From Candidatus Omnitrophota bacterium (GTDB taxonomy: Bacteria > Omnitrophota > Gorgyraeia > Tantalellales > Tantalellaceae): a stretch of DNA of 64,000 bases. The stretch is from contig JBARQV010000010.1 in NCBI GenBank assembly GCA_049643885.1, positions 758 through 64,757 on the forward strand. The letters run 5' to 3'. Under the pieces are notes generated by a model, which did no database searches, had not been told where the DNA came from, and saw only the letters and a list, made by a program, of their open reading frames with translations. Below, one piece after another: positions 2,426 to 62,450 of this stretch; position 1 is the first letter of the stretch; the number at the start of each line of letters is the position of its first letter. The translations under genes were made by a program, and so were the position numbers.

Positions 2426-3877
2426 TTATTTGTTCTTTATGAATATACGTTTCAGGGAATCGCCGAGTCGGTTTTTTTTCAATTCTCGGGCGATTATATT
2501 TTTAAACAAACGAGGGCTCACTCCTAAAAATGAAATGACTTCACTAAACCCAAAAAATCTTATTACCAGAACTTTTTTCAACATTTTCAAAAGACCAAAT
2601 GGTGTATAAAAAGAAAATTTTATCTTTCTGCCTATTTTTTTTAAGGTAGCGTGGCTATAATTATCCGAATAAAGTTCGCCCCTCTCGGTAACATGGTAAC
2701 CGGGTGTTTCTTCCGCTATTTTTTTAAGAGGCGAGAATTTCTCTATTCTTAACTTCTGAAAAGTAATGGAGTCAAGGCTTATCTCCTTTGCGAATTTCGA
2801 TATATACAACATTTCTTCCTCGGTCTCGCCTATGTTGCCATAAATAAAGTAGCCATGGTAGTAGATGGGGTATTTTTTTAGCACAGCAAAGCATTTTCTT
2901 ATGGTGTCTGAGTCGAAACCCTTGTTAAGCTCAGCCAGTATACGATTGTGCGGAGATTCTATACCTATCAAGAGTATCTTGAATCCCGCCCGAACCATCT
3001 TGCTTAGAAGCTTAGGATGTTTGGCTATTTCGATACGGGTCTGTGCTATAAAACGTTTTTTTATTTTGCGTGCTATTATTAAATCGCAAATCTCTTCTGC
3101 CCTTTTTGCATTTGTGAAAAAGTTATCATCGCTAAAAAGTACGGTATTGGCGGTTATTTGTTCTATCTCTTCGATAACAGATTCAACGCTACGTGCCGCA
3201 TAGTATCTCTTTTGACCCAGCGGATTCAAGCTGAATGTGCAAAACTTGCACTCGTAAGGACATCCTCTCGCGCTCAAAACTGTATCAAACGTTAAATTTG
3301 TCACGTTGAGACCGTTTAATATTAAGCGATGTTTGTTCCGCCTTAAATTGCGATCGGGTGTTGCTATGTCGTTTACTTCCTGCAAAGATCTATTTTCATT
3401 ATGAATCACCTTGCTGTTTGCTCTATAAGAAATACCTAAAATATTTTCGAGCGGCAGCCCTTTTAGTATCTCTTTTGTCGTCTCTTCTCCCTCGCCTCTT
3501 ACAATAATGTCTATTTTTGGACAGGCCCGAAAGAGCTCCTCGCCCTGCTCTGTCGCCTTATATCCGCCTACGACTAAAGGCATATTATCCGGCATGCGGT
3601 TTAGCAGGTCACAGATTTCTTTGAATTGGCGATCCCACCCAATGCTAACGAATATAATATCTATTTCCCTGCGTATAAAATCCAGCAGCTTATCGGGATC
3701 GCAAAAATCTTTTTCAGACCTCAGGTCAAGAAGGGTTATTTTATCCACAAGACCCTTGGCGCTTGTCGCTACATACTCAAGGCCTGTAGGCGGGAAAAGC
3801 CCCCTCATGCTTGTTGTGTTTTTTTCGATATACGGATTTAGAAATAAGGCGTGTTTATGTTTCATCTTTAATAACAT
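2426..3877 (-). CDS. B12-binding domain radical SAM protein
   Basis: N-terminal cobalamin-binding-like domain, then a CxxxCxxC radical SAM motif (GCPYECKFCTF). The first few residues (MLLKMKHKH) may be an N-terminal overcall. Confidence 0.75.
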   Translation of the reverse strand: MLLKMKHKHALFLNPYIEKNTTSMRGLFPPTGLEYVATSAKGLVDKITLLDLRSEKDFCDPDKLLDFIRREIDIIFVSIGWDRQFKEICDLLNRMPDNMPLVVGGYKATEQGEELFRACPKIDIIVRGEGEETTKEILKGLPLENILGISYRANSKVIHNENRSLQEVNDIATPDRNLRRNKHRLILNGLNVTNLTFDTVLSARGCPYECKFCTFSLNPLGQKRYYAARSVESVIEEIEQITANTVLFSDDNFFTNAKRAEEICDLIIARKIKKRFIAQTRIEIAKHPKLLSKMVRAGFKILLIGIESPHNRILAELNKGFDSDTIRKCFAVLKKYPIYYHGYFIYGNIGETEEEMLYISKFAKEISLDSITFQKLRIEKFSPLKKIAEETPGYHVTERGELYSDNYSHATLKKIGRKIKFSFYTPFGLLKMLKKVLVIRFFGFSEVISFLGVSPRLFKNIIARELKKNRLGDSLKRIFIKNK

Positions 3878-4092: not shown

Positions 4093-5769
4093 TTATTTAT
4101 CCTTCTTGCTTTCAATCTTTTTCCAAGTATCGCGTAAAGTCACCGTGCGGTTAAAAACCGGTTTTTTGTCAGAGGAGTCGGCCGGGTCGACAAAGAAATA
4201 ACCCTGCCTTTCGAACTGGTACCTGCTTCCCGACGAGGCGTCTTTCAGGCTCGGCTCGAGCTTACAGGATTTTAAAACTTCCAGCGAATTCGGGTTCAGA
4301 TTGGACCTATAATCCTTGCCTTCTTCCACTTCCTCGGGATCCCGTTTTGTAAATAGATACTCATACAGGCGAACCTCTGCCTCTGTCGCATGCTTGGCTG
4401 ATACCCAATGCAACGTGCCTTTAACCTTACGTCCGTCCGGGGCATCCCCTCCCCGTGTTTCAGGATCGTGCGTGCAATGAAGTTCCAGTATCTCTCCATT
4501 TGCATCCTTGATAACCTCATCGCATTTAATGAAATACGCATACCGCAAGCGAACTTCTTTTCCCGGGGCCAGACGGAAGAATTTCTTCGGCGGGTCTTCC
4601 CTGAAATCATCGCGCTCGATGTAGAGTTCGCGTGAAAACGGAACTTTTCTGGTCCCCATGTCCGGGGCTTCCGGATTATTGATCGCGTCCAGCTCTTCTT
4701 CGTCTTCCGGATAGTTAGTGATCACTACTTTTAAGGGACGTAAAACCGCCATTGCGCGGAGGGCTGTCTTATTTAATTCTTCGCGGATACTGTTCTCAAG
4801 CTGGACAACATCTACGATGCTATTCATCCTCGCTACCCCGATCTTCTCACAAAAATCCCTGATCGATCCGGGCGTATACCCCCGTCTTCTTAGGCCCGAT
4901 ATTGTAGGCATCCGGGGGTCATCCCAACCGTTCACATGCCCGCCTTCTACAAGCTCCAAAAGTTTTCTTTTGCTCAAAATAGTATTACTAAGATTGAGGC
5001 GCGCAAACTCCATCTGCTGGGGATGGTAAGCCCCTAGCTCATCCAGGAACCAGTCATATAACTGGCGGTGAGTCTCGAATTCTAAAGTGCAAATGGAGTG
5101 GGTGATCTTTTCTATCGAATCTTCGAGACCGTGGGCCCAATCATACATGGGGTATATGCACCACTTGCCGCCTGTGCGATGATGTTCGGCGTGCAATATG
5201 CGGTACATAACAGGATCACGCATTAAAAGATTCGGGTGTGTCATGTCGATCTTCGCGCGTAATGTTTTCGAGCCGTCAGGAAACTCCCCTTTCTGCATGC
5301 GTTCGAACAGGTCCAGATTCTCTTCGGCAGACCGGTCCCTGTAGGGGCTGTTTTCCCCCGGCTCGGTAATGGTGCCTCGGTATTCCCTGACCTCTTCAAG
5401 CGTCTGATCACAGACGAATGCTTTCCCTTTCTTGATGAGCAGGACCGCGTATTCGTACATCTCGTCAAAATAGTCAGAAGCGTAAAACAGTCTGTCCTGC
5501 CAGTCCGCGCCCAGCCACTTGACATCCTCGATAATAGAGTCGACGTATTCCTGTTCTTCTTTGCAGGGGTTGGTATCGTCGAACCTAAGATTGAATTTGC
5601 CGTTATAGTCCCTGGCTATGCCGTGATTAAGGCATATCGCCTTGGCATGGCCCACGTGCAGGTACCCGTTGGGCTCGGGAGGAAAACGGGTATGGACCCT
5701 GCCTTCGTTCTTCCCCGCCGTCAGGTCCGCGTCAATTATGTCCCTTATGAAATTCGAAGTCTTCCTCAT
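4093..5769 (-). CDS. glnS: Glutaminyl-tRNA synthetase
   Basis: [11 protein letters not shown]...[23 protein letters not shown]...FDDTNP gives very strong class I GlnRS N-terminal identity. 558 aa. Confidence 0.93.
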
Positions 5770-13905: not shown

Positions 13906-13920
13906 GAATTTCCCTTTTCT

Positions 13921-14000
13921 GTCATCCCGGGGGAGACCCGGGATGACATACAAATATTACTTGATCCCGGACATTCGCCTTCGGCGAATTCCGGGATGAC
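13921..14000. repeat. GTCATCCCGG hairpin-repeat cluster (two units) in the rny-ymdB intergenic region
   Basis: gtcatcccggg-ggaga-cccgggatgac and gatcccggacattcgccttcggcgaattccgggatgac. The second unit is near-identical to 32033-32070. Confidence 0.75.
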
Positions 14001-14050
14001 GTTCGGTCATGCAACTTACGCCGCTTCCCTCCGTAAGTTGCGTCCTCACG

Positions 14051-19304: not shown

Positions 19305-19493
19305 AAAATAAAAGGCCGGTGGTTAGCCGGCCTTAAATGCCCCGTCGGGCCGTAAACAATTGGAGAATTGTGACCTGGTCTTCCCAGGTGGGTGCCCTCC
19401 TGACAATCCCGAAGGAATGCCAGAGTTAAGCTCCCGATTTAGTGGTGTTGGTCCAATTCTCATTCGCTGTGCACGCACCCGACAGGAAACTCT
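19305..19493 (-). ncRNA. Candidate structured sRNA (about 190 nt, 6S-RNA-like architecture; identity unconfirmed)
   Basis: Reverse-strand sigma70-like promoter (TTGAAG at 19524-19529, 18-nt spacer, TATAAT at 19500-19505) immediately after the pheT stop. Terminal helix ccugucggg/cccgacggg, internal 12-bp helix gagaauuggacc/ggucacaauucuc separated by a 16/13-nt internal loop. Ends in an intrinsic terminator ggccggcuaaccaccggcc followed by UUUUAUUUU. Confidence 0.4.
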
Positions 19494-31939: not shown

Positions 31940-32032
31940 CTCTTTTCGCCCCTATGTTATTAATAAAATTTACTCTCTGCGGTGTGAATATTGTAACAAC
32001 TGCCGATTAAAAAAGCAATATGCTTATTATTT

Positions 32033-32135
32033 GGTCCCGGATATTCGCCTTCGGCGAATTCCGGGATGACATTCTTTTATTCCCGGGCTCGTCCGGGATG
32101 ACATATTTTTATTGTTTTCTCGTCCGGGATGACAT
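32033..32135. repeat. GTCATCCCGG hairpin-repeat cluster (3-4 units) in the ndk-rsmI intergenic region
   Basis: ggtcccggatattcgccttcggcgaattccgggatgac is near-identical to 13963-14000. It is followed by tcccgggctcgtccgggatgacatatttttatt and a second cgtccgggatgacatatttt unit. Confidence 0.75.
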
Positions 32136-32139
32136 ATTT

Positions 32140-32805
32140 TCAAAAAATGACGATAAATTCACCGCGCGGTTTATTTTTGGCGAAGTGTTCAAGGTGCTGG
32201 CCTGCTGTTCCCCTTCTTATTTCCTCAAATTTCTTGGTTATCTCCCGGGCCAGCACGATCTCCCTGCCCGGAGCGATCTCGGCAAAATCACTAAGGAATT
32301 TCTCTATACGGTGCGGTGATTCGTAAACGATCACCGTCCTGTCTTCCTCCTTCAGTTTCTCCAGCTGCTTGCGCCTTTTCGCGCTTTTGCTCGACAAAAA
32401 GCCTTCAAAGACAAATTTGCTTGTCGGCTTGCCGGAAAGGACCAACGCCGCAACGAATGCCGTGGGCCCCGGGACAGCAGTTAAAGATATATCGTTTTTG
32501 ATGCACCCGGCTATCAGTATATATCCCGGATCAGAAATGCCGGGAGTGCCGGAATCCGAGATCAAGGCCACGTTTGCCCCTTCTCGCAACTTTTTCAATA
32601 TCTGGGGCGTCTTTTGTTCCGCGTTGTACGAGTAAAAACTGGTCAGGGCGGCATCGATCCCGTACTTGCCGAGCAGGACTTTCGCCTTGCGCGTGTCTTC
32701 CGCGGCGATGAGATCGGCTTCTTTCAATATTCTTATCGCCCGCAAGGTGATATCTTCAAGATTTCCGATCGGCGTGCTTACTATATAAAGTGTACCTGGA
32801 GCCAT
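32140..32805 (-). CDS. rsmI: 16S rRNA (cytidine1402-2'-O)-methyltransferase
   Basis: LYIVSTPIGNLEDITLRAIRILKEADLIAAEDTR tetrapyrrole-methylase-fold signature of RsmI. Confidence 0.85.
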   Translation of the reverse strand: MAPGTLYIVSTPIGNLEDITLRAIRILKEADLIAAEDTRKAKVLLGKYGIDAALTSFYSYNAEQKTPQILKKLREGANVALISDSGTPGISDPGYILIAGCIKNDISLTAVPGPTAFVAALVLSGKPTSKFVFEGFLSSKSAKRRKQLEKLKEEDRTVIVYESPHRIEKFLSDFAEIAPGREIVLAREITKKFEEIRRGTAGQHLEHFAKNKPRGEFIVIF

Positions 32806-41890: not shown

Positions 41891-42112
41891 CTCGTCCTCC
41901 TAGAATACTTTAATCTAGTTTTAAAAAAATAGCAGTAAACGTAGTATATAGGTATCTGTGGATATGTTCATAACCCCCAAAACCCATGTAGCTAAAGAAA
42001 AAACAACAATCCCCTCTTGTTGATAACCACCACAAAAAATGTGGAGAACCTGTTTACTTATCCACAAGTTATCCACAAGGGGGGATAACAAAGAACAGCT
42101 CGGGGCAACTTT
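41891..42112. promoter_or_regulatory. Candidate oriC segment (dnaA-dnaN intergenic DnaA-box cluster)
   Basis: Two perfect tandem TTATCCACA boxes (42058-42066 and 42069-42077). Near-boxes TGTGGATAT (41957-41965) and TGTGGAGAA (42040-42048). AT-rich tracts. Window-wide gene strand switch centred on dnaA. Confidence 0.6.
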
Positions 42113-43616: not shown

Positions 43617-43625
43617 TTATCCACA
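43617..43625. promoter_or_regulatory. DnaA box (TTATCCACA) upstream of dnaA
   Basis: Perfect consensus 9-mer in the dnaA-rpmH divergent intergenic region, probably for dnaA autoregulation or the second oriC arm. Confidence 0.5.
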
Positions 43626-44607: not shown

Positions 44608-46212
44608 GTGGAAAAGAGACTCATATTCGCCGTAGTTCTATCTATTTTGATCCTTCTTGTTTTTCAAAGGATCCATAAGCCCGCGCCAACCGTGCCTGCT
44701 CAGCCCATGGGTCAAATTTCACCGGAGATGCAGGTAACAAGGCAAGAGCCCGCGCAAAAGCCTGTACAAGAGACCGCCCTTACCCAGAAGAAAACACCAA
44801 TAGAGGAAAAAGAGACGATTGTTCAGACCGAAAAGCAGACGATACTTTTTACCGATATCGGCGGAGGCATCAAGCAGATCAACTTGAACGAATACAAAAA
44901 GGATGAAGAAGAATTCCCCCTGTTAATGGCGCAACCCGGGGAAGGAATGTTTGCGATAAAAAGCCCGCTGATCCCAGGCCTGGAAAAACGCAAATATGAG
45001 ACAATACAGGGAGATGATTATCTTGAATTCCGTTTTGTTGAGAAAGGGCTGATAGAGATAACCAAACGGTTTAATTACCATAACACAAAGTCCTATATGG
45101 ACTTATCGATAAAAATAAAAAATCTGTCACCGAAAAATATCAGCTTTTCTTATGAAGTCAGAGGGCCGTTAGGGCTTGTAAGGGCTGATAAGCTAATGGG
45201 CAGGAGCTTTCTGGAATCGGCCACTATGATAGATGGAAAAGTAATGAGAAAAAAAGCTATCAAAGGGACACAGGAAAATGCGGGGAGTATTTCATGGACA
45301 GCGTTGAAGAATAGATATTTTGCAGTGATTCTTAAACCCTTCACCGCACCAAGGTCGGTGGTTCTGTCTGGAACGCCCGACAAAGGAATCGAAGCAGACT
45401 TCAAAAGCCAAAATTACTTGATACGCCCAGGCGAGACCATCGAAGATGATTATTTGCTTTACGCGGGCGTACAAGACATAAACAAGCTTAAAGTCCTGGG
45501 GCATGATTTGGAAGCAATCGTTAATTACGGGGTATTCGGGGGTGTGAGTAAAACGCTTTTATCGGTCTTGAGGTTTTTTCACAAAGGAACAAAAAGCTGG
45601 GGACTGGCCATTATCTTGCTTACCCTGTTGGTCAATGTCATCCTGTTTCCCCTCACAAGAAAAAGCGTCACCTCGATGCACCAGATGAAGAAAATTCAAC
45701 CACATATGCAGAAATTAAAAGATCTCCATAAGGACAACCCGCAAAAGCTAAATAAAGAGATGATGGAGTTATACAAACAATACAACGTAAACCCTCTTAG
45801 CGGGTGTCTTCCTTTATTGCTGCAAATGCCTGTATTTATTGCTCTTTATCAAGGTCTTATCTGCTCGGTCGAGCTGAAGGGCGCATCATTTTTATGGATA
45901 AAAGATCTTGCCAGGCCGGATGCGGTCAGCCTCCCCTTTTCTTTACCTGTGATAGGAGCATCAGTGAATATTTTGCCACTTCTTATGGTGGCAATGATGG
46001 CGATTCAGCAAAAAATTTCCCAAGGGGCCACCGCTGCGGCCATGACCGGCGACCAGGCCAGCCAGCAGAAAATGATGATGGTAATCTTCCCGGTGATGTT
46101 TGGATTTTTGTTTTACAATATGCCGGCGGGCTTGGTGCTTTACTGGGTGACCAATACTATCTTGATGACAGCCGAGCAAAAGATCATGGGCAACATGCTG
46201 GACAAGGACTAA
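44608..46212 (+). CDS. yidC: Membrane protein insertase YidC
   Basis: 534 aa with N-terminal TM, periplasmic domain and conserved C-terminal five-TM core (GCLPLLLQMPVFIALY...). Confidence 0.92.
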   Translation: MEKRLIFAVVLSILILLVFQRIHKPAPTVPAQPMGQISPEMQVTRQEPAQKPVQETALTQKKTPIEEKETIVQTEKQTILFTDIGGGIKQINLNEYKKDEEEFPLLMAQPGEGMFAIKSPLIPGLEKRKYETIQGDDYLEFRFVEKGLIEITKRFNYHNTKSYMDLSIKIKNLSPKNISFSYEVRGPLGLVRADKLMGRSFLESATMIDGKVMRKKAIKGTQENAGSISWTALKNRYFAVILKPFTAPRSVVLSGTPDKGIEADFKSQNYLIRPGETIEDDYLLYAGVQDINKLKVLGHDLEAIVNYGVFGGVSKTLLSVLRFFHKGTKSWGLAIILLTLLVNVILFPLTRKSVTSMHQMKKIQPHMQKLKDLHKDNPQKLNKEMMELYKQYNVNPLSGCLPLLLQMPVFIALYQGLICSVELKGASFLWIKDLARPDAVSLPFSLPVIGASVNILPLLMVAMMAIQQKISQGATAAAMTGDQASQQKMMMVIFPVMFGFLFYNMPAGLVLYWVTNTILMTAEQKIMGNMLDKD

Positions 46213-46221
46213 ATTGGAATA

Positions 46222-46416
46222 ATGAACGATAAGCTCACCACCATAGAGGTCGAAGACATAACGATCGAAGATGCCATTCGGAAGGCCCTAAAGATCCTTA
46301 ACGCACAGAAAAATGATGTCGCCATTGAGGTGCTAAAGGAAGAACACAAAGGGCTTTTTGGAATGAAAGGCGCAGACAACGCGAAGATCCGAGCAACACT
46401 CAAGCGCCCCCACTAA
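46222..46416 (+). CDS. jag: Jag/KhpB N-terminal-domain protein, apparently truncated (64 aa; KH and R3H domains absent)
   Basis: Jag_N-like sequence (EDAIRKALKILNAQKNDVAIEVLKEEHKGLFGMKG) in the expected position after yidC. The ORF stops 12 nt before the repeat array that occupies the place of the rest of the gene. Confidence 0.55.
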   Translation: MNDKLTTIEVEDITIEDAIRKALKILNAQKNDVAIEVLKEEHKGLFGMKGADNAKIRATLKRPH

Positions 46417-46428
46417 TCCTTACGTTGA

Positions 46429-46444
46429 GTTTCCACGTGGAAAC
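46429..46444. promoter_or_regulatory. parS-like 16-bp perfect palindrome GTTTCCACGTGGAAAC (copy 1)
   Basis: Perfect inverted repeat. Differs from canonical parS (TGTTTCACGTGAAACA) by a symmetric extra C/G in each half-site. Lies 12 nt after the jag stop. Confidence 0.45.
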
Positions 46445-46578
46445 CGACACCACTATGAAGTTCTCCTGCAGCGGTTCCGCGGTGCAACTTGTTTACGATG
46501 TGCAGCGAAACCGACACTACTATGAAGTTCTCCTACAGCGGGTCCGCGGCGAAACTAGTTTACGTTTCGTAGCGAAAT
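46445..46578. repeat. Tandem direct repeat, 2 x 67 bp
   Basis: Units 46445-46511 and 46512-46578 are about 85% identical (cgacaccactatgaagttctcctgcagcggttccgcggtgcaac...). Unit length is not a multiple of 3. Confidence 0.8.
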
Positions 46579-46587
46579 ATTTCCAGA

Positions 46588-46847
46588 GAATCAGAAGAAC
46601 AGAATATCAGGGGGCAGAAAATCAGGACACCAGGGCATCGGGGTCGATTGTCTCTGGTACCCAGATTCCCAGATCTCCTGCCTCCCGATATCCCGATACA
46701 CTGATACCCGTGCCTGGGAATCAGAAGAACAGAATCTCAGGAAACAGAGGAGCAGCATACCAGCGCATCAGACTCGATGCCCCCGGGTACCCAGCTTTTC
46801 CGGTAGCCTGCCACCTGATTTCCCGGTACCCTGATATTCTTTTTTCT
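46588..46847. repeat. Tandem ~130-bp repeats C1 and C2 (purine-rich half followed by pyrimidine-rich half)
   Basis: Both units start with gaatcagaagaacagaat(a/c)tcagg. Each has ATCAGG-type motifs in the first half and CCCGAT/CCTGAT-type motifs in the second half, so each unit is an imperfect long inverted repeat. Confidence 0.75.
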
Positions 46848-46854
46848 CAATTTC

Positions 46855-46882
46855 TTGACTTTTTCAAAAAATATGGTATAGT
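46855..46882 (+). promoter_or_regulatory. Sigma70-type promoter inside the repeat array, reading toward parA
   Basis: TTGACT (46855-46860), 16-nt spacer, TATAGT (46877-46882). The predicted TSS lies about 7 nt before the second parS-like palindrome. Confidence 0.5.
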
Positions 46883-46895
46883 TGCTCACAAATGG

Positions 46896-46911
46896 GTTTC
46901 CACGTGGAAAT
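46896..46911. promoter_or_regulatory. parS-like palindrome GTTTCCACGTGGAAAt (copy 2)
   Basis: 15/16 match to copy 1, positioned as an operator at or just downstream of the predicted TSS of the promoter at 46855-46882. Confidence 0.45.
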
Positions 46912-46918
46912 GTTTTGG

Positions 46919-47040
46919 GAATCAGAACAGCAGGACATCAGGAGGCAGAGAATCAGGATATTAGGATTTCAGGCGCGATAATCCCCGATGCCCCGTTTTC
47001 CCGATACCCTGGCCCCTAATATCCCAATACCCTGATAACC
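46919..47040. repeat. Third ~125-bp repeat unit (C3), degenerate copy of C1/C2
   Basis: Begins gaatcagaacagcaggacatcagg and has the same purine-half/pyrimidine-half organisation. Ends about 37 nt before the parA start. Confidence 0.65.
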
Positions 47041-47077
47041 ATCCGCGTATTAGCAAATTTAACCACATTATCGACTT

Positions 47078-47920
47078 ATGAAAAAAATAGCGATCTGTAA
47101 CCAAAAAGGCGGCGTTGCAAAAACCACGACGGCCATTAATCTTGCCGCATACATTGCCTTAAAAGGCAAACGTACCCTGTTGGTTGATGCGGACCCCCAG
47201 GCAAATGCCACCAGCGGCCTTGGCATCAATAAAAACGAAATCAAATACAGTATATATGATGTACTGCATGAGCAAATCAGCCTGGACCAGGCGATAAAAG
47301 AAACAGCGATCGAAAATCTTTTTCTGGTTCCGTCTAACATAAATCTCACCGGCGCCGAAGTAGAACTGGTAAACGTTATGGGCCGTGAATACCGCTTGAA
47401 AAAAGCCGTGAGCGAGTTGAAGAAAGAATTTGATTTCATGCTCATAGACTGTCCGCCGTCACTGGGGCTGTTGACTATAAACGGCCTTACAGCAGTAAAT
47501 TCGGTCATCATACCGATACAATGTGAATATTATGCACTGGAAGGATTGGGGCAGTTGATGAACACGCTGAATCTTGTCAGAGAAAATTTAAATAATAACC
47601 TCGAAGTTGAAGGCGTGCTCATGACAATGGCTGATTACCGGACGAATTTGACCAAAGAAGTGATCAACGAAGTGAAAAATCACTTTGGCAACAAGGTGTA
47701 TAAGTCCATCATCCCAAGGGCAATTAAGCTAACAGAAGCCCCGGGGTTTGGAAAGCCAATAGCACTTTATGACAAGAACTCACCAGGAGCCGTTAAATAC
47801 GATGCATTAGCGCACGAAGTGTTGAAGATACCTTTTGTTTCTAAAAATATTTCACAAGTATCGGAAAATGATGAAGTTATAAATTATACGGAGGGGGATT
47901 ATGGAAAAGAGACTGGGTAA
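47078..47920 (+). CDS. parA: Chromosome partitioning ATPase ParA/Soj
   Basis: Deviant Walker A KGGVAKTTTAINLAA, ParA family, with a 280-aa C-terminal extension. Confidence 0.92.
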   Translation: MKKIAICNQKGGVAKTTTAINLAAYIALKGKRTLLVDADPQANATSGLGINKNEIKYSIYDVLHEQISLDQAIKETAIENLFLVPSNINLTGAEVELVNVMGREYRLKKAVSELKKEFDFMLIDCPPSLGLLTINGLTAVNSVIIPIQCEYYALEGLGQLMNTLNLVRENLNNNLEVEGVLMTMADYRTNLTKEVINEVKNHFGNKVYKSIIPRAIKLTEAPGFGKPIALYDKNSPGAVKYDALAHEVLKIPFVSKNISQVSENDEVINYTEGDYGKETG

Positions 47921-48728
47921 GGGGTTAGATGCGCTTATACCTGGCGACATGAGTAAGTCCAAGGAAAAGGTAGCATATTTGAAGCTGGCAGAGATCATCC
48001 CGAACCAGTTTCAGCCTCGCAAAAGTTTTTCAAAGAATAAGATGGAAGAGCTTTTGAATTCTGTTCGGGAAAAAGGAGTGATCCAGCCGGTCTTGGTCCG
48101 GCCGGCGGAAGAAGGGTATGAACTTATTGCGGGAGAGCGCAGATGGAGAGCAGCTCAGGAGCTGAACCTGGACGAAATACCGGCGATAATTAAAAGTGAT
48201 GTAAGCGACGTGAACAGCCTGGAGATCTCGCTCATTGAAAATATACAGCGGGATGATCTGAATCCGATCGATGAGGCGAACGCGTATAAAGAACTGACGG
48301 ATAAGTTTATGTATACGCTTGAAAAGATCGGACAGATGGTAGGGAAAGACAAGACGACTATCTCGAACAGCTTGAGAATCCTGTCTCTTTCTCGGGAAAT
48401 ACAGGGGCTTTTGGAATCTGGGCAGATATCGGTCGGGCACGCGAAAGCCCTTTTATCGTTCGCCAGTGAATACCGGCAGAAAAAGATCGCGGACAAGATC
48501 GTGAAAAAAGGCTTGTCTGTCCGGCAGGTCGAAATGCTGACAGGAGGCGCCGGCAAACAGAAAAAACAAAAGAAAAAAGATCCGGACGTGGTGAGGGTCG
48601 AAGAAGAGCTGCAACACAGGCTCGGGACCAAGGTCAATATCCTCCAGGGCAAAAAGAGGGGGAGGATCGAGATCCAGTATTTTTCCAATGAGGACCTGCA
48701 GAGGATATTGAATCTGTTGCTCCGCTGA
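47901..48728 (+). CDS. parB: Chromosome partitioning protein ParB/Spo0J
   Basis: RGLGKGLDALI-type N-terminus (KRLGKGLDALIPG), ParB box GERRWRAA, HTH and C-terminal dimerisation domain. Confidence 0.92.
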   Translation: MEKRLGKGLDALIPGDMSKSKEKVAYLKLAEIIPNQFQPRKSFSKNKMEELLNSVREKGVIQPVLVRPAEEGYELIAGERRWRAAQELNLDEIPAIIKSDVSDVNSLEISLIENIQRDDLNPIDEANAYKELTDKFMYTLEKIGQMVGKDKTTISNSLRILSLSREIQGLLESGQISVGHAKALLSFASEYRQKKIADKIVKKGLSVRQVEMLTGGAGKQKKQKKKDPDVVRVEEELQHRLGTKVNILQGKKRGRIEIQYFSNEDLQRILNLLLR

Positions 48729-59380: not shown

Positions 59381-59390
59381 TGATTATTTA

Positions 59391-59437
59391 ATGATCCCGG
59401 ATCGAGCCTTTCAGGCTCGTCCGGGATGACACCAAGT
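59391..59437. repeat. GTCATCCCGG-family hairpin repeat inside the V-ATPase operon (atpB-atpD intergenic)
   Basis: gatcccggatcgagcctttcaggctcgtccgggatgac has a 12-13-bp stem (cccggatcgagcc/ggctcgtccggg) and the shared CCGGGATGAC end. Confidence 0.7.
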
Positions 59438-62315: not shown

Positions 62316-62352
62316 CAGGGACGTCCGATTCCCCCAGCGAGGAAATCGGACT
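62316..62352. repeat. 37-nt hairpin motif copy 2
   Basis: cagggacgtccgattcccccagcgaggaaatcggact with a perfect 8-bp stem gtccgatt/aatcggac. 33/37 identical to 144-180. Lies 21 nt after the atpK stop. Confidence 0.5.
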
Positions 62353-62450
62353 ATGTCATCCCGGGCGAGGCCGTAGGCCGAGACCCGGGATCAAGTAATA
62401 TTATTATGTGGTCCCCTCTTCCGCGGGGATGACATATTTTTATTCCCGAC
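62353..62450. repeat. GTCATCCCGG hairpin-repeat cluster downstream of atpK
   Basis: gtcatcccgggcgaggccgtaggccgagacccgggat, then tcccctcttccgcggggatgacatatttttattcccg. Shares the GGGATGACATATTTTTATT end with 32088-32111. Confidence 0.7.

Follow-up and report, generated by a model that had tools for sequence, protein, structure and literature searches.

The jagN-parA spacer and its surroundings

A 64,000-nt stretch of DNA from Candidatus Omnitrophota bacterium (assembly GCA_049643885.1, contig JBARQV010000010.1), hereafter the window, was analysed around the 661-bp spacer that separates a short open reading frame (ORF) with a Jag_N domain only (jagN) from the partition genes parA and parB. The local gene order is dnaA (minus strand), rpmH, rnpA, yidD, yidC, the Jag_N-only ORF, the 661-bp gap, parA, parB, pyrR and pyrB, and the encoded ParB matches, at 100% identity, a protein listed by NCBI under Candidatus Omnitrophota. 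The spacer holds two 16-bp palindromes, a predicted promoter, two tandem copies of a 67-bp module and three units of about 130 bp (Table 1). It lies ~4.4 kb from the DnaA-box cluster, an origin-proximal position already recognised in an earlier reading of the letters alone (hereafter the sequence-only reading).

Eight further species were found via ParB homologues that are 62-75% identical, giving nine species including that of the window. The contig of one more homologue, P0007, does not contain the spacer. All eight relatives have kept the same gene block, rnpA-yidD-yidC-jagN-parA-parB-pyrR. A Jag_N-only ORF of 63-100 amino acids (aa) stands directly before parA in all nine species, including one with a 122-bp repeat-free spacer, and throughout, the gene between yidC and parA lacks the KH and R3H domains that full-length Jag/KhpB has. 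A stand-alone Jag_N protein thus appears to be the norm in the sampled Omnitrophota clade, and the array has truncated nothing, contrary to the initial description of a truncated jag. Similarly, the spacer is not normally short: its length ranges from 122 to 661 bp across the clade, and it has repeatedly been filled with mutually unrelated repeats. The sister species L093 shows the bare core within 122 bp, namely a palindrome, TTGACT-17-TATATT, a second palindrome and the ATG. Palindromes aside, similarity between the spacers of different species is limited to the 66/67-bp module. The array is therefore not one organised element, as had been supposed, since the palindromes and the promoter are conserved, the 67-mers recur in two relatives and the 130-bp units were found only in this species.

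The same 661-bp sequence was present in five other full-length contigs, and two more differed by one single-nucleotide polymorphism (SNP, 46976 C/T); the contigs compared are separate NCBI metagenome-assembled genomes (MAGs) and Logan assemblies of different runs. Because the spacer matches across these separate contigs, at least seven independent assemblies agreeing but for one SNP, the array is real and mis-assembly is excluded. Neither of the two outcomes that would have spoken for a local anomaly, a full-length jag in the relatives and an array confined to one assembly, was found. Contigs L006, L009, L010, L092 and L095 do break inside or beside the repeats, and a 179-aa reading frame (46425-46964) stays open across the array; however, seven full-length contigs concur, one SNP aside, and the spacers of the relatives differ, so the frame cannot be conserved. 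The 179-aa ORF had no Pfam match and was called by no gene caller in any assembly. The region was accordingly described correctly as non-coding, and there is virtually no chance that the array is an assembly artefact or that the 179-aa ORF is a real gene. A six-frame translation (a chimeric 'protein') of the 130-bp units gave no match among 5.8 billion clusters, a search of low sensitivity for diverged DNA repeats.

Table 1 Features of the window and corresponding features of related species (positions are those of the window or of the locus named)
Feature	Position	Strand	Remarks
Jag_N-only ORF (jagN), 64 aa	46222..46416	+	Pfam Jag_N, E 2e-15
parS-variant palindrome 1, GTTTCCACGTGGAAAC	46429..46444	.	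Proposed ParB nucleation site
67-bp module, copy 1	46440..46506	-	Shares its first 5 nt with the right arm of palindrome 1
67-bp module, copy 2	46507..46573	-	85% identical to copy 1; starts with GAAAC, half of the palindrome
130-bp unit 1	46583..46712	.	About 7 octamers, loop, about 7 inverted octamers
130-bp unit 2	46713..46842	.	Head-to-tail with unit 1
Predicted parAB promoter	46855..46882	+	TTGACT-16-TATAGT, extended -10 TG; 10/12 consensus positions
parS-variant palindrome 2, GTTTCCACGTGGAAAT	46896..46911	.	One mismatch to palindrome 1
130-bp unit 3	46914..47043	.	In predicted parA 5' untranslated region (UTR); SNP 46976 C/T at its tip
parA, 280 aa	47078..47920	+	
parB, 275 aa	47901..48728	+	ParB_N, HTH_ParB and ParB_C (Pfam); GERRWRAA motif
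ParB DNA-contact segment, TLEKIGQMVGKDKTTISNSLRIL...GHAK	48318..48446	+	L140, K151, K182 where other ParBs have Q/H, R, R/K
DnaA-box cluster, probable oriC	41957..42077	.	dnaA-dnaN spacer; TRF: 2 x TTATCCACAAG tandem
Dispersed hairpin repeats	13917-14004, 32025-32140, 59385-59434, 62355-62415; also 144-180 and 62316-62352		
Jag_N-only ORF, L091	4506-4703		
Jag_N-only ORF, L093	4828-5025		
Jag_N-only ORF, L096	2381-2581		
Jag_N-only ORF, L097	2743-3045		
Jag_N-only ORF, L098	2461-2682		
Jag_N-only ORF, L102	2454-2657		
Jag_N-only ORF, L103	2773-2979		
Jag_N-only ORF, L160	2804-2995		
Near-leaderless parA promoter, L091	5168-5207		
Near-leaderless parA promoter, L097	3153-3192		
Near-leaderless parA promoter, L098	3146-3186		
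Near-leaderless parA promoter, L102	3128-3168		

A conserved palindrome resembling parS

The two near-identical palindromes are present where the sequence-only reading had put them, 167-649 bp upstream of parA, and they are the only matches in the 64 kb when up to three mismatches are allowed (0.3 expected). They do not both mark the edges of the array, contrary to what had been proposed: the second lies between the promoter and unit 3, 13 nt past the -10 box, which places it in the predicted 5' UTR. A second palindrome between promoter and parA also occurs in L093 and L096. The exact sequence GTTTCCACGTGGAAAC was found in the jagN-parA spacer of seven of the eight relatives, the remaining one (L098) having a 2-mismatch version. 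Altogether, the nine species contain 15 palindromes, one or two each, all of them in the jagN-parA spacer. The half-site logo reads G (27/30) TTT C (29/30) CAC with unconserved flanks, and L103 shows the canonical-type T/C alternative at half-site base five. The distance between palindrome and promoter varies from 12 to about 410 bp across the species, a spread more in keeping with a loading site than with an operator at a fixed position.

In a centred alignment the palindrome equals the canonical parS, TGTT[T/C]CACGTG[A/G]AACA, save that the outer TG has become GT. Its central 12 bp (TTCCACGTGGAA) are identical to those of canonical parS, so the initial view that nothing here resembles a described element does not hold. 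Against the consensus TGTTNCACGTGNAACA the best alignment gives 12/16 positions, the outer TG/CA being replaced by GT/AC, and the site thus departs from the canonical consensus. No canonical parS with at most two mismatches was found in 134 kb of DNA from the nine clade species, where the variant is always present. An outgroup panel was assembled from 80 loci among the matches listed in a ParB-profile scan of genome contigs, the best being only 50% identical; they come mostly from other phyla and include five Omnitrophota genomes with an R-type ParB (arginine at the position described below). Among these listed matches, 45 of the 80 loci carry a canonical parS (at most one mismatch), many of them just upstream of parA, and none carries the variant site at the same threshold. 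A full-text literature search returned no paper giving this sequence as a binding site.

On the evidence of position, similarity and co-variation with ParB, the palindromes are very probably the parS of this clade in a lineage-specific variant. The alternative, that they are operators of a non-ParB transcription factor (a CACGTG 'E-box'-type site) and that the true parS lies elsewhere, draws on the habit of operators to occur as promoter-adjacent palindromes and on the failure of the canonical consensus at 4/16 positions. We give it a very remote chance: the 12 central bp are those of canonical parS, the site is placed exactly where other phyla keep parS, the 134 kb of clade DNA lack a canonical parS, the base-reading residues of ParB are altered in the same clade, the distance to the promoter is not fixed and there is no linked regulator gene. 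The suggestion of a ParB loading platform stands for the palindromes, where comparative evidence favours it.

In the R-type Omnitrophota nearest to the clade the palindromes are hybrids: TGTTCCACGTGGAAAG and TTTTCCACGTGGAACA (L011 818-833 and L012 5091-5106) have one canonical half, and the other half shows the T of the variant at position 1 (TTTCCAC). These sites may be intermediates in the change of specificity.

ParB residues proposed to read the site

The ParB of the window is otherwise orthodox, with a GERRWRAA motif and the domains ParB_N, HTH_ParB and ParB_C. HMMER alignments to Thermus Spo0J and Myxococcus ParB place its residues L140, K151 and K182 at the positions of Caulobacter Q162, R173 and R204. 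The L/K/K combination was found in 114 of 116 matched clade ParBs, whereas all 59 matched outgroup ParBs, among the matches listed, have R at position 173 together with Q or H at 162. Across the nine clade species and these 59 outgroup proteins, the variant site always goes with L140/K151 and the canonical site with Q(H)/R, without exception among the matches listed. One intermediate ParB with R at 173 occurs inside the clade (P0109, on a 1.7-kb contig).

R173 has been described as invariant or absolutely conserved among ParB orthologues (PMC7383237). According to Jalal et al., R173 contacts parS, and position 173 reads base 1 of the half-site, Gln there selecting adenine (PMC7383237). The base read by residue 173 is the base that has changed in the clade site. 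The pattern looks as if ParB and parS had been re-specified by co-evolution, with K151 standing for R173, L140 for Q162 and GT for the outer TG.

Compared with canonical ParB-parS systems, the locus keeps a 16-bp palindrome in one or two copies just upstream of parAB and a few kb from DnaA boxes, together with the three ParB domains; it differs in the outer GT instead of TG in 27 of 30 half-sites, in having K for the 'invariant' R173 and L for Q162, and in the embedding of its sites in amplified repeats. The known natural re-specification within the ParB family, that of Noc and the Noc-binding site (NBS) in Firmicutes, likewise involved position 173 and the base it reads (PMC7383237), which marks position 173 as a specificity switch. 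However, Noc has Q173/K179/K184/R201 and binds TATTTCCCGGGAAATA (PMC7383237), whereas the window ParB has K151/S157/S162/G179 and its site keeps the central CACGTG, so the pair is not of the Noc-NBS type. Moreover, the window ParB is the only ParB of the parAB operon; it is no paralogue that has taken on another role.

No bacterial system of chromosome segregation is more widespread than ParB-parS, and the parS site is regarded as almost invariant across phyla. Of the 120 ParB clusters that match best (61-100% identity to the window ParB), at least 115 belong to the K-type clade, which amounts to a natural experiment in which a centromere and its binding protein would have drifted together without loss of function. 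The pair is open to cheap in-vitro tests with K151R and L140Q mutants and with GT/TG site swaps (GTTTCCACGTGGAAAC versus TGTTCCACGTGGAACA). Meanwhile, parS predictors built on the canonical consensus will report 'no parS' for the genomes of this clade.

Promoter and parA leader

The TTGACT-16-TATAGT promoter announced in the sequence-only reading was confirmed, and it is the only such site in 46000-47300. The form TTGACT-16/17-TAT[A/T]NT is found upstream of parA in all nine species, and the same promoter type occurs upstream on the rpmH side (window 43821) and in relatives. As had also been proposed, the promoter points into the third unit, which lies inside a predicted parA leader of ~190 nt.

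Leader length varies in the clade. It is ~35-190 nt in the window, L093, L096, L103 and L160, and several relatives have a nearly leaderless parA, in which the -10 box ends 8-10 nt before the ATG and no Shine-Dalgarno sequence is present. Additionally, the -35 region of parA (46852-46873, TTCTTGACTTTTTCAAAAAATA) is 77% identical to the start-codon region (47068-47089, TTATCGACTTATGAAAAAAATA), and L093 shows the same pairing of -35 and start-codon regions (TTGACTTTGTAG... and TTGACTTATGAAAAAAAT). An ancient duplication could account for this similarity, and so could chance, the DNA being AT-rich.

A 66/67-bp module flanking the palindromes

The tandem duplication described earlier at 46445-46578 is the same repeat in another register: the two 67-bp copies span 46440-46573, and each opens with GAAAC. 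A homologous module is found in L096 (2611-3158, the same as L099 6740-7304), where seven 66-bp tandem units flank both palindromes. Five of them lead up to palindrome 1 and the other two to palindrome 2, and GGTTTC forms the end of every unit. The window 67-mers are homologous to these units on the opposite strand, so that the orientation is reversed relative to parA, with 88-94% identity over 35-50 nt. L091 has a single homologous copy left of palindrome 1 (4725-4795) and a weaker inverted copy right of palindrome 2. Thus, the module occurs in the window and two relatives, in one to seven copies and either orientation, and six of the nine species are without it. The GGTTTC junction suggests that the module was amplified via unequal recombination or slippage between a palindrome arm and a short direct repeat.

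YidC, ParA and ParB together are only 65% identical between the window and L096, which falls outside the group of the window, L093 and L091. Because the module is 88-94% identical against this 65% in protein, sequence comparison marks it as old and constrained, and its distribution points to loss from L093 and absence from five other species. A scan of metagenome contigs with the core of the 66/67-mer, GAACTTCNTAGNNGTGTNNGTTTC, recovered the L096 species again (as L099) and two chance matches in coding DNA, and no new lineage.

Two functions were considered for the module and rejected. RNA folding on both strands in three species gave z of about 0, which disposes of a small RNA. For a coding role, the L096 array has a period of 66 with one frame open, but its first array lacks an in-frame start, and the window copies repeat every 67 bp in the reverse orientation. 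One L096 unit has an ATG in frame with parA owing to a C-to-T variant, and the gene caller there begins parA at 3085 and not at 3190, making it 311 aa long; this annotation artefact recurs in L102 (310 aa).

The 130-bp units

Three repeats of about 125-130 bp, originally placed at 46588, 46718 and 46919, were found within a few bases of these positions. Units 2 and 3 are 70-74% identical to unit 1. The contrast between a purine-rich and a pyrimidine-rich half was also borne out: purines make up 65-71% of each 5' half and 32-35% of each 3' half, and ATCAGG occurs 8.7 times per kb inside the units versus 0.33 per kb outside. Both arms have an 8-nt sub-period (autocorrelation 0.53 at lag 8, z 9.9, and 0.45 at lag 16, z 6.7), with the octamer consensus ATCAGGRN in the left arm and TCCCGATA or CCTGATNN in the right, giving CAG every 8 nt. 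An assignment of the octamers to DnaA boxes was rejected, as at best 6/9 positions match, and in a CsrA-type reading the GGA motifs would be buried in the stem.

The idea that each unit is a long imperfect hairpin held for RNA of the minus strand and was weak for DNA. Minus-strand RNA of units 1-3 folds with -58.3, -48.3 and -58.3 kcal/mol (z -4.0, -1.8 and -4.9), plus-strand RNA with -40.4, -38.2 and -36.8 kcal/mol (z -1.5 to -2.4), and neither strand of single-stranded DNA convincingly beats shuffled sequence (z +0.7 to -1.7). The consensus stem contains 27 G-U cells versus 4 A-C cells. Covariation, assessed on three copies only, was not significant, with 4 compensatory pairs versus 2.4 in shuffled controls (reached in 92/500 shuffles) and 88.9% of cells paired versus 87.1%.

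Alignment with relatives showed conserved palindromes and no 130-bp units. Searches with nhmmer and a covariance model (199 kb) found no further copy elsewhere in the 64-kb window and none in the related loci (135 kb). Rfam gave no match at gathering score for 46200-47200 and, with E up to 10, only weak microRNA-precursor-like matches of the kind expected of long hairpins. A blastn search with the whole spacer against plasmids and phages returned nothing, and a pattern scan of viral contigs gave 55 matches, 51 of them with one identical 24-mer and none unit-like by nhmmer. Relative to the L093 core, the units sit at two places, 1 and 2 between the first palindrome and the promoter and 3 between the second palindrome and the parA start, leaving the core signals intact. 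The unit ends GGGAATCAG...CTGATACCC match at 8/9 positions as inverted repeats, and no flanking direct repeat is visible.

Proposed explanation and alternatives

We consider it fairly probable that the spacer is the chromosome partition site plus the control region of parAB, expanded by repeats. ParB dimers with the K151/L140 surface would nucleate on the two variant parS sites, which bracket a putative sigma-70-type promoter, close into a cytidine triphosphate (CTP) clamp and presumably spread as canonical ParB does; together with ParA they would segregate the origin region. ParB bound to palindrome 2, which would cover roughly positions +7 to +22 of the transcript, probably dampens parAB transcription, providing feedback. 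The parS flank of ~66 bp may have been tandemly duplicated with its junction at GGTTTC, via unequal recombination or replication slippage. The 130-bp units would be locally amplified or inserted repeats in a spacer of unconstrained length, and unit 3 would add at most a -37 kcal/mol hairpin to the parA leader. On balance we lean towards seeing the units as non-essential local or inserted repeats. The locus is not a categorically new element; it is a known parS/ParB system in altered form with orphan species-specific repeats, and much of its apparent organisation is accretion. The DNA between parS and the parAB promoter would thus represent a zone of tolerated expansion.

Several points weigh against this account. 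We infer recognition of the palindromes by ParB from their position, similarity and co-variation, and the co-variation, which sets one clade against the rest, amounts in essence to a single evolutionary event and is hence weaker than the counts suggest. The site can also be aligned as canonical GTTTC arms with one extra bp per half, in which case K151 is not the explanation. The identity of ~90% over 35-50 bp beside parS, between species ~65% identical in protein, is a puzzle and argues for a function of the module that the account does not supply. The better folding of minus-strand RNA and the G-U excess are not predicted by 'junk', although very few events could have produced the excess, given that a single octamer pair (ATCGGG opposite CCTGAT) keeps recurring. 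Finally, the search for units within this genome covered 64 kb, and dispersed copies elsewhere are possible.

Such copies are central to a reading of the units as members of a dispersed MITE/ERIC/REP-like family, inserted twice (units 1 and 2; unit 3) and with further copies outside the window. The units do resemble these families in being imperfect non-coding palindromes of ~125-130 bp in transcribed intergenic DNA, with ends forming 8/9 inverted repeats, and in varying between related species while the core signals stay intact. They occupy two separate positions relative to the L093 core and are 26-30% diverged from one another though the array is invariant within the species; the spacers of relatives hold other unrelated sequence including short hairpins, one L091 spacer hairpin recurs 2.2 kb away, and part of the L091 spacer resembles, by eye, the repeat at window 144 and 62316. 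However, only three copies are known, all in one 460-bp stretch, with none elsewhere in the 64 kb or in the related loci (135 kb). There is no visible target-site duplication, plasmid and phage collections gave no match and viral contigs only chance ones, units 1 and 2 abut head-to-tail as from tandem duplication, and the arms consist of ~7 degenerate octamers whose DNA hairpin is no better than shuffled sequence. A dispersed family is therefore possible but not likely.

The folding results bear on another possibility, that the units act as minus-strand RNAs antisense to the parA leader, forming near-perfect G-U-rich hairpins of ~50 bp that might, for example, be cut by RNase III or regulate parAB as antisense RNA. 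The minus-strand fold energies of units 1 and 3 were reached by 0/200 shuffles while plus-strand RNA and both DNA strands were unremarkable, the stem shows 27 G-U versus 4 A-C cells, and 24 of 48 pairs are invariant among copies 26-30% diverged. Yet the minus strand has no terminator and no promoter-like site of at least 9/12 (a relaxed scan gave 8/12 at best), no Rfam family matches, covariation does not rise above the shuffled control, no relative has a homologue and a single octamer pair, repeated, may account for the G-U excess. We regard a functional antisense RNA as distinctly unlikely.

The octamer periodicity raises the further option that the octamer arrays, and perhaps the 67-mers, are protein-binding iterons, forming an accessory centromere or regulatory array like the plasmid centromere repeats bound by ribbon-helix-helix proteins. 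MetJ boxes, TP228 parH and the omega heptads are arrays of 7-8-bp repeats, direct and inverted, and plasmid centromeres such as TP228 parH, the pSM19035 omega heptads and R1 parC place arrays of 7-11-bp repeats, in both direct and inverted orientation, beside a parA promoter. In the window, the 8-nt periodicity is strong in both arms of all three units, the arrays lie within the partition locus, and the 66/67-bp module is far more conserved than expected of neutral DNA. By contrast, the plasmid arrays are partnered by small ribbon-helix-helix or ParR proteins, none of which is encoded here: the conserved rnpA-yidD-yidC-jagN-parA-parB-pyrR block has no extra small DNA-binding gene, and its ParB is of the HTH type. 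The octamer consensus (ATCAGGRN / TCCCGATA) is unlike the ParB half-site, the octamer arrays are species-specific and, being in no relative, are not required by the partition system of the clade, and the 66-bp module is missing from six of nine species. An iteron role is thus highly unlikely. The broader combination, in which a re-specified ParB-parS system of a large clade is joined by the 66/67-bp module and the 130-nt hairpins as functional accessory elements, be it an iteron-like platform or antisense parAB RNAs, also has a low probability in our view.

Further features of the window and its relatives

Other short intergenic repeats able to form hairpins are dispersed in the window (Table 1); they belong to at least two families, TCCCGGA...TCCGGGATGAC and CAGGGACGTCCG...CCCAGCGAGRAAATCGGACT. 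By eye, similar sequences are present in the jagN-parA spacers of L091 and L102, and these genomes are rich in small repeats. The second spacer of the par operon, between parB and pyrR, also varies in repeat content, even within a species-level cluster: L091 and L095 encode an identical ParB (P0006 in L094 and L095), and their parB-pyrR spacers measure ~505 bp (L091 6835-7339) versus ~115 bp (L095 1686-1800). The spacer repeats fragment short-read assemblies at the jagN-parA locus; the five contigs that end in or next to a repeat-filled spacer (L006, L009 and L010, plus L092 and L095) belong to the window species and the L091 species, and L092 begins exactly at a palindrome.

Near the probable origin, six DnaA boxes lie within the cluster between dnaA and dnaN, two of them perfect (TTATCCACA) and arranged in an 11-bp tandem, and a further perfect box was found upstream of dnaA (43617-43625). 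A DciA-family gene (PF05258) adjoins dnaN. Additionally, a 6S RNA (Rfam RF00013) was identified on the minus strand at 19335-19491, with 68 bits against a gathering score of 46.4.

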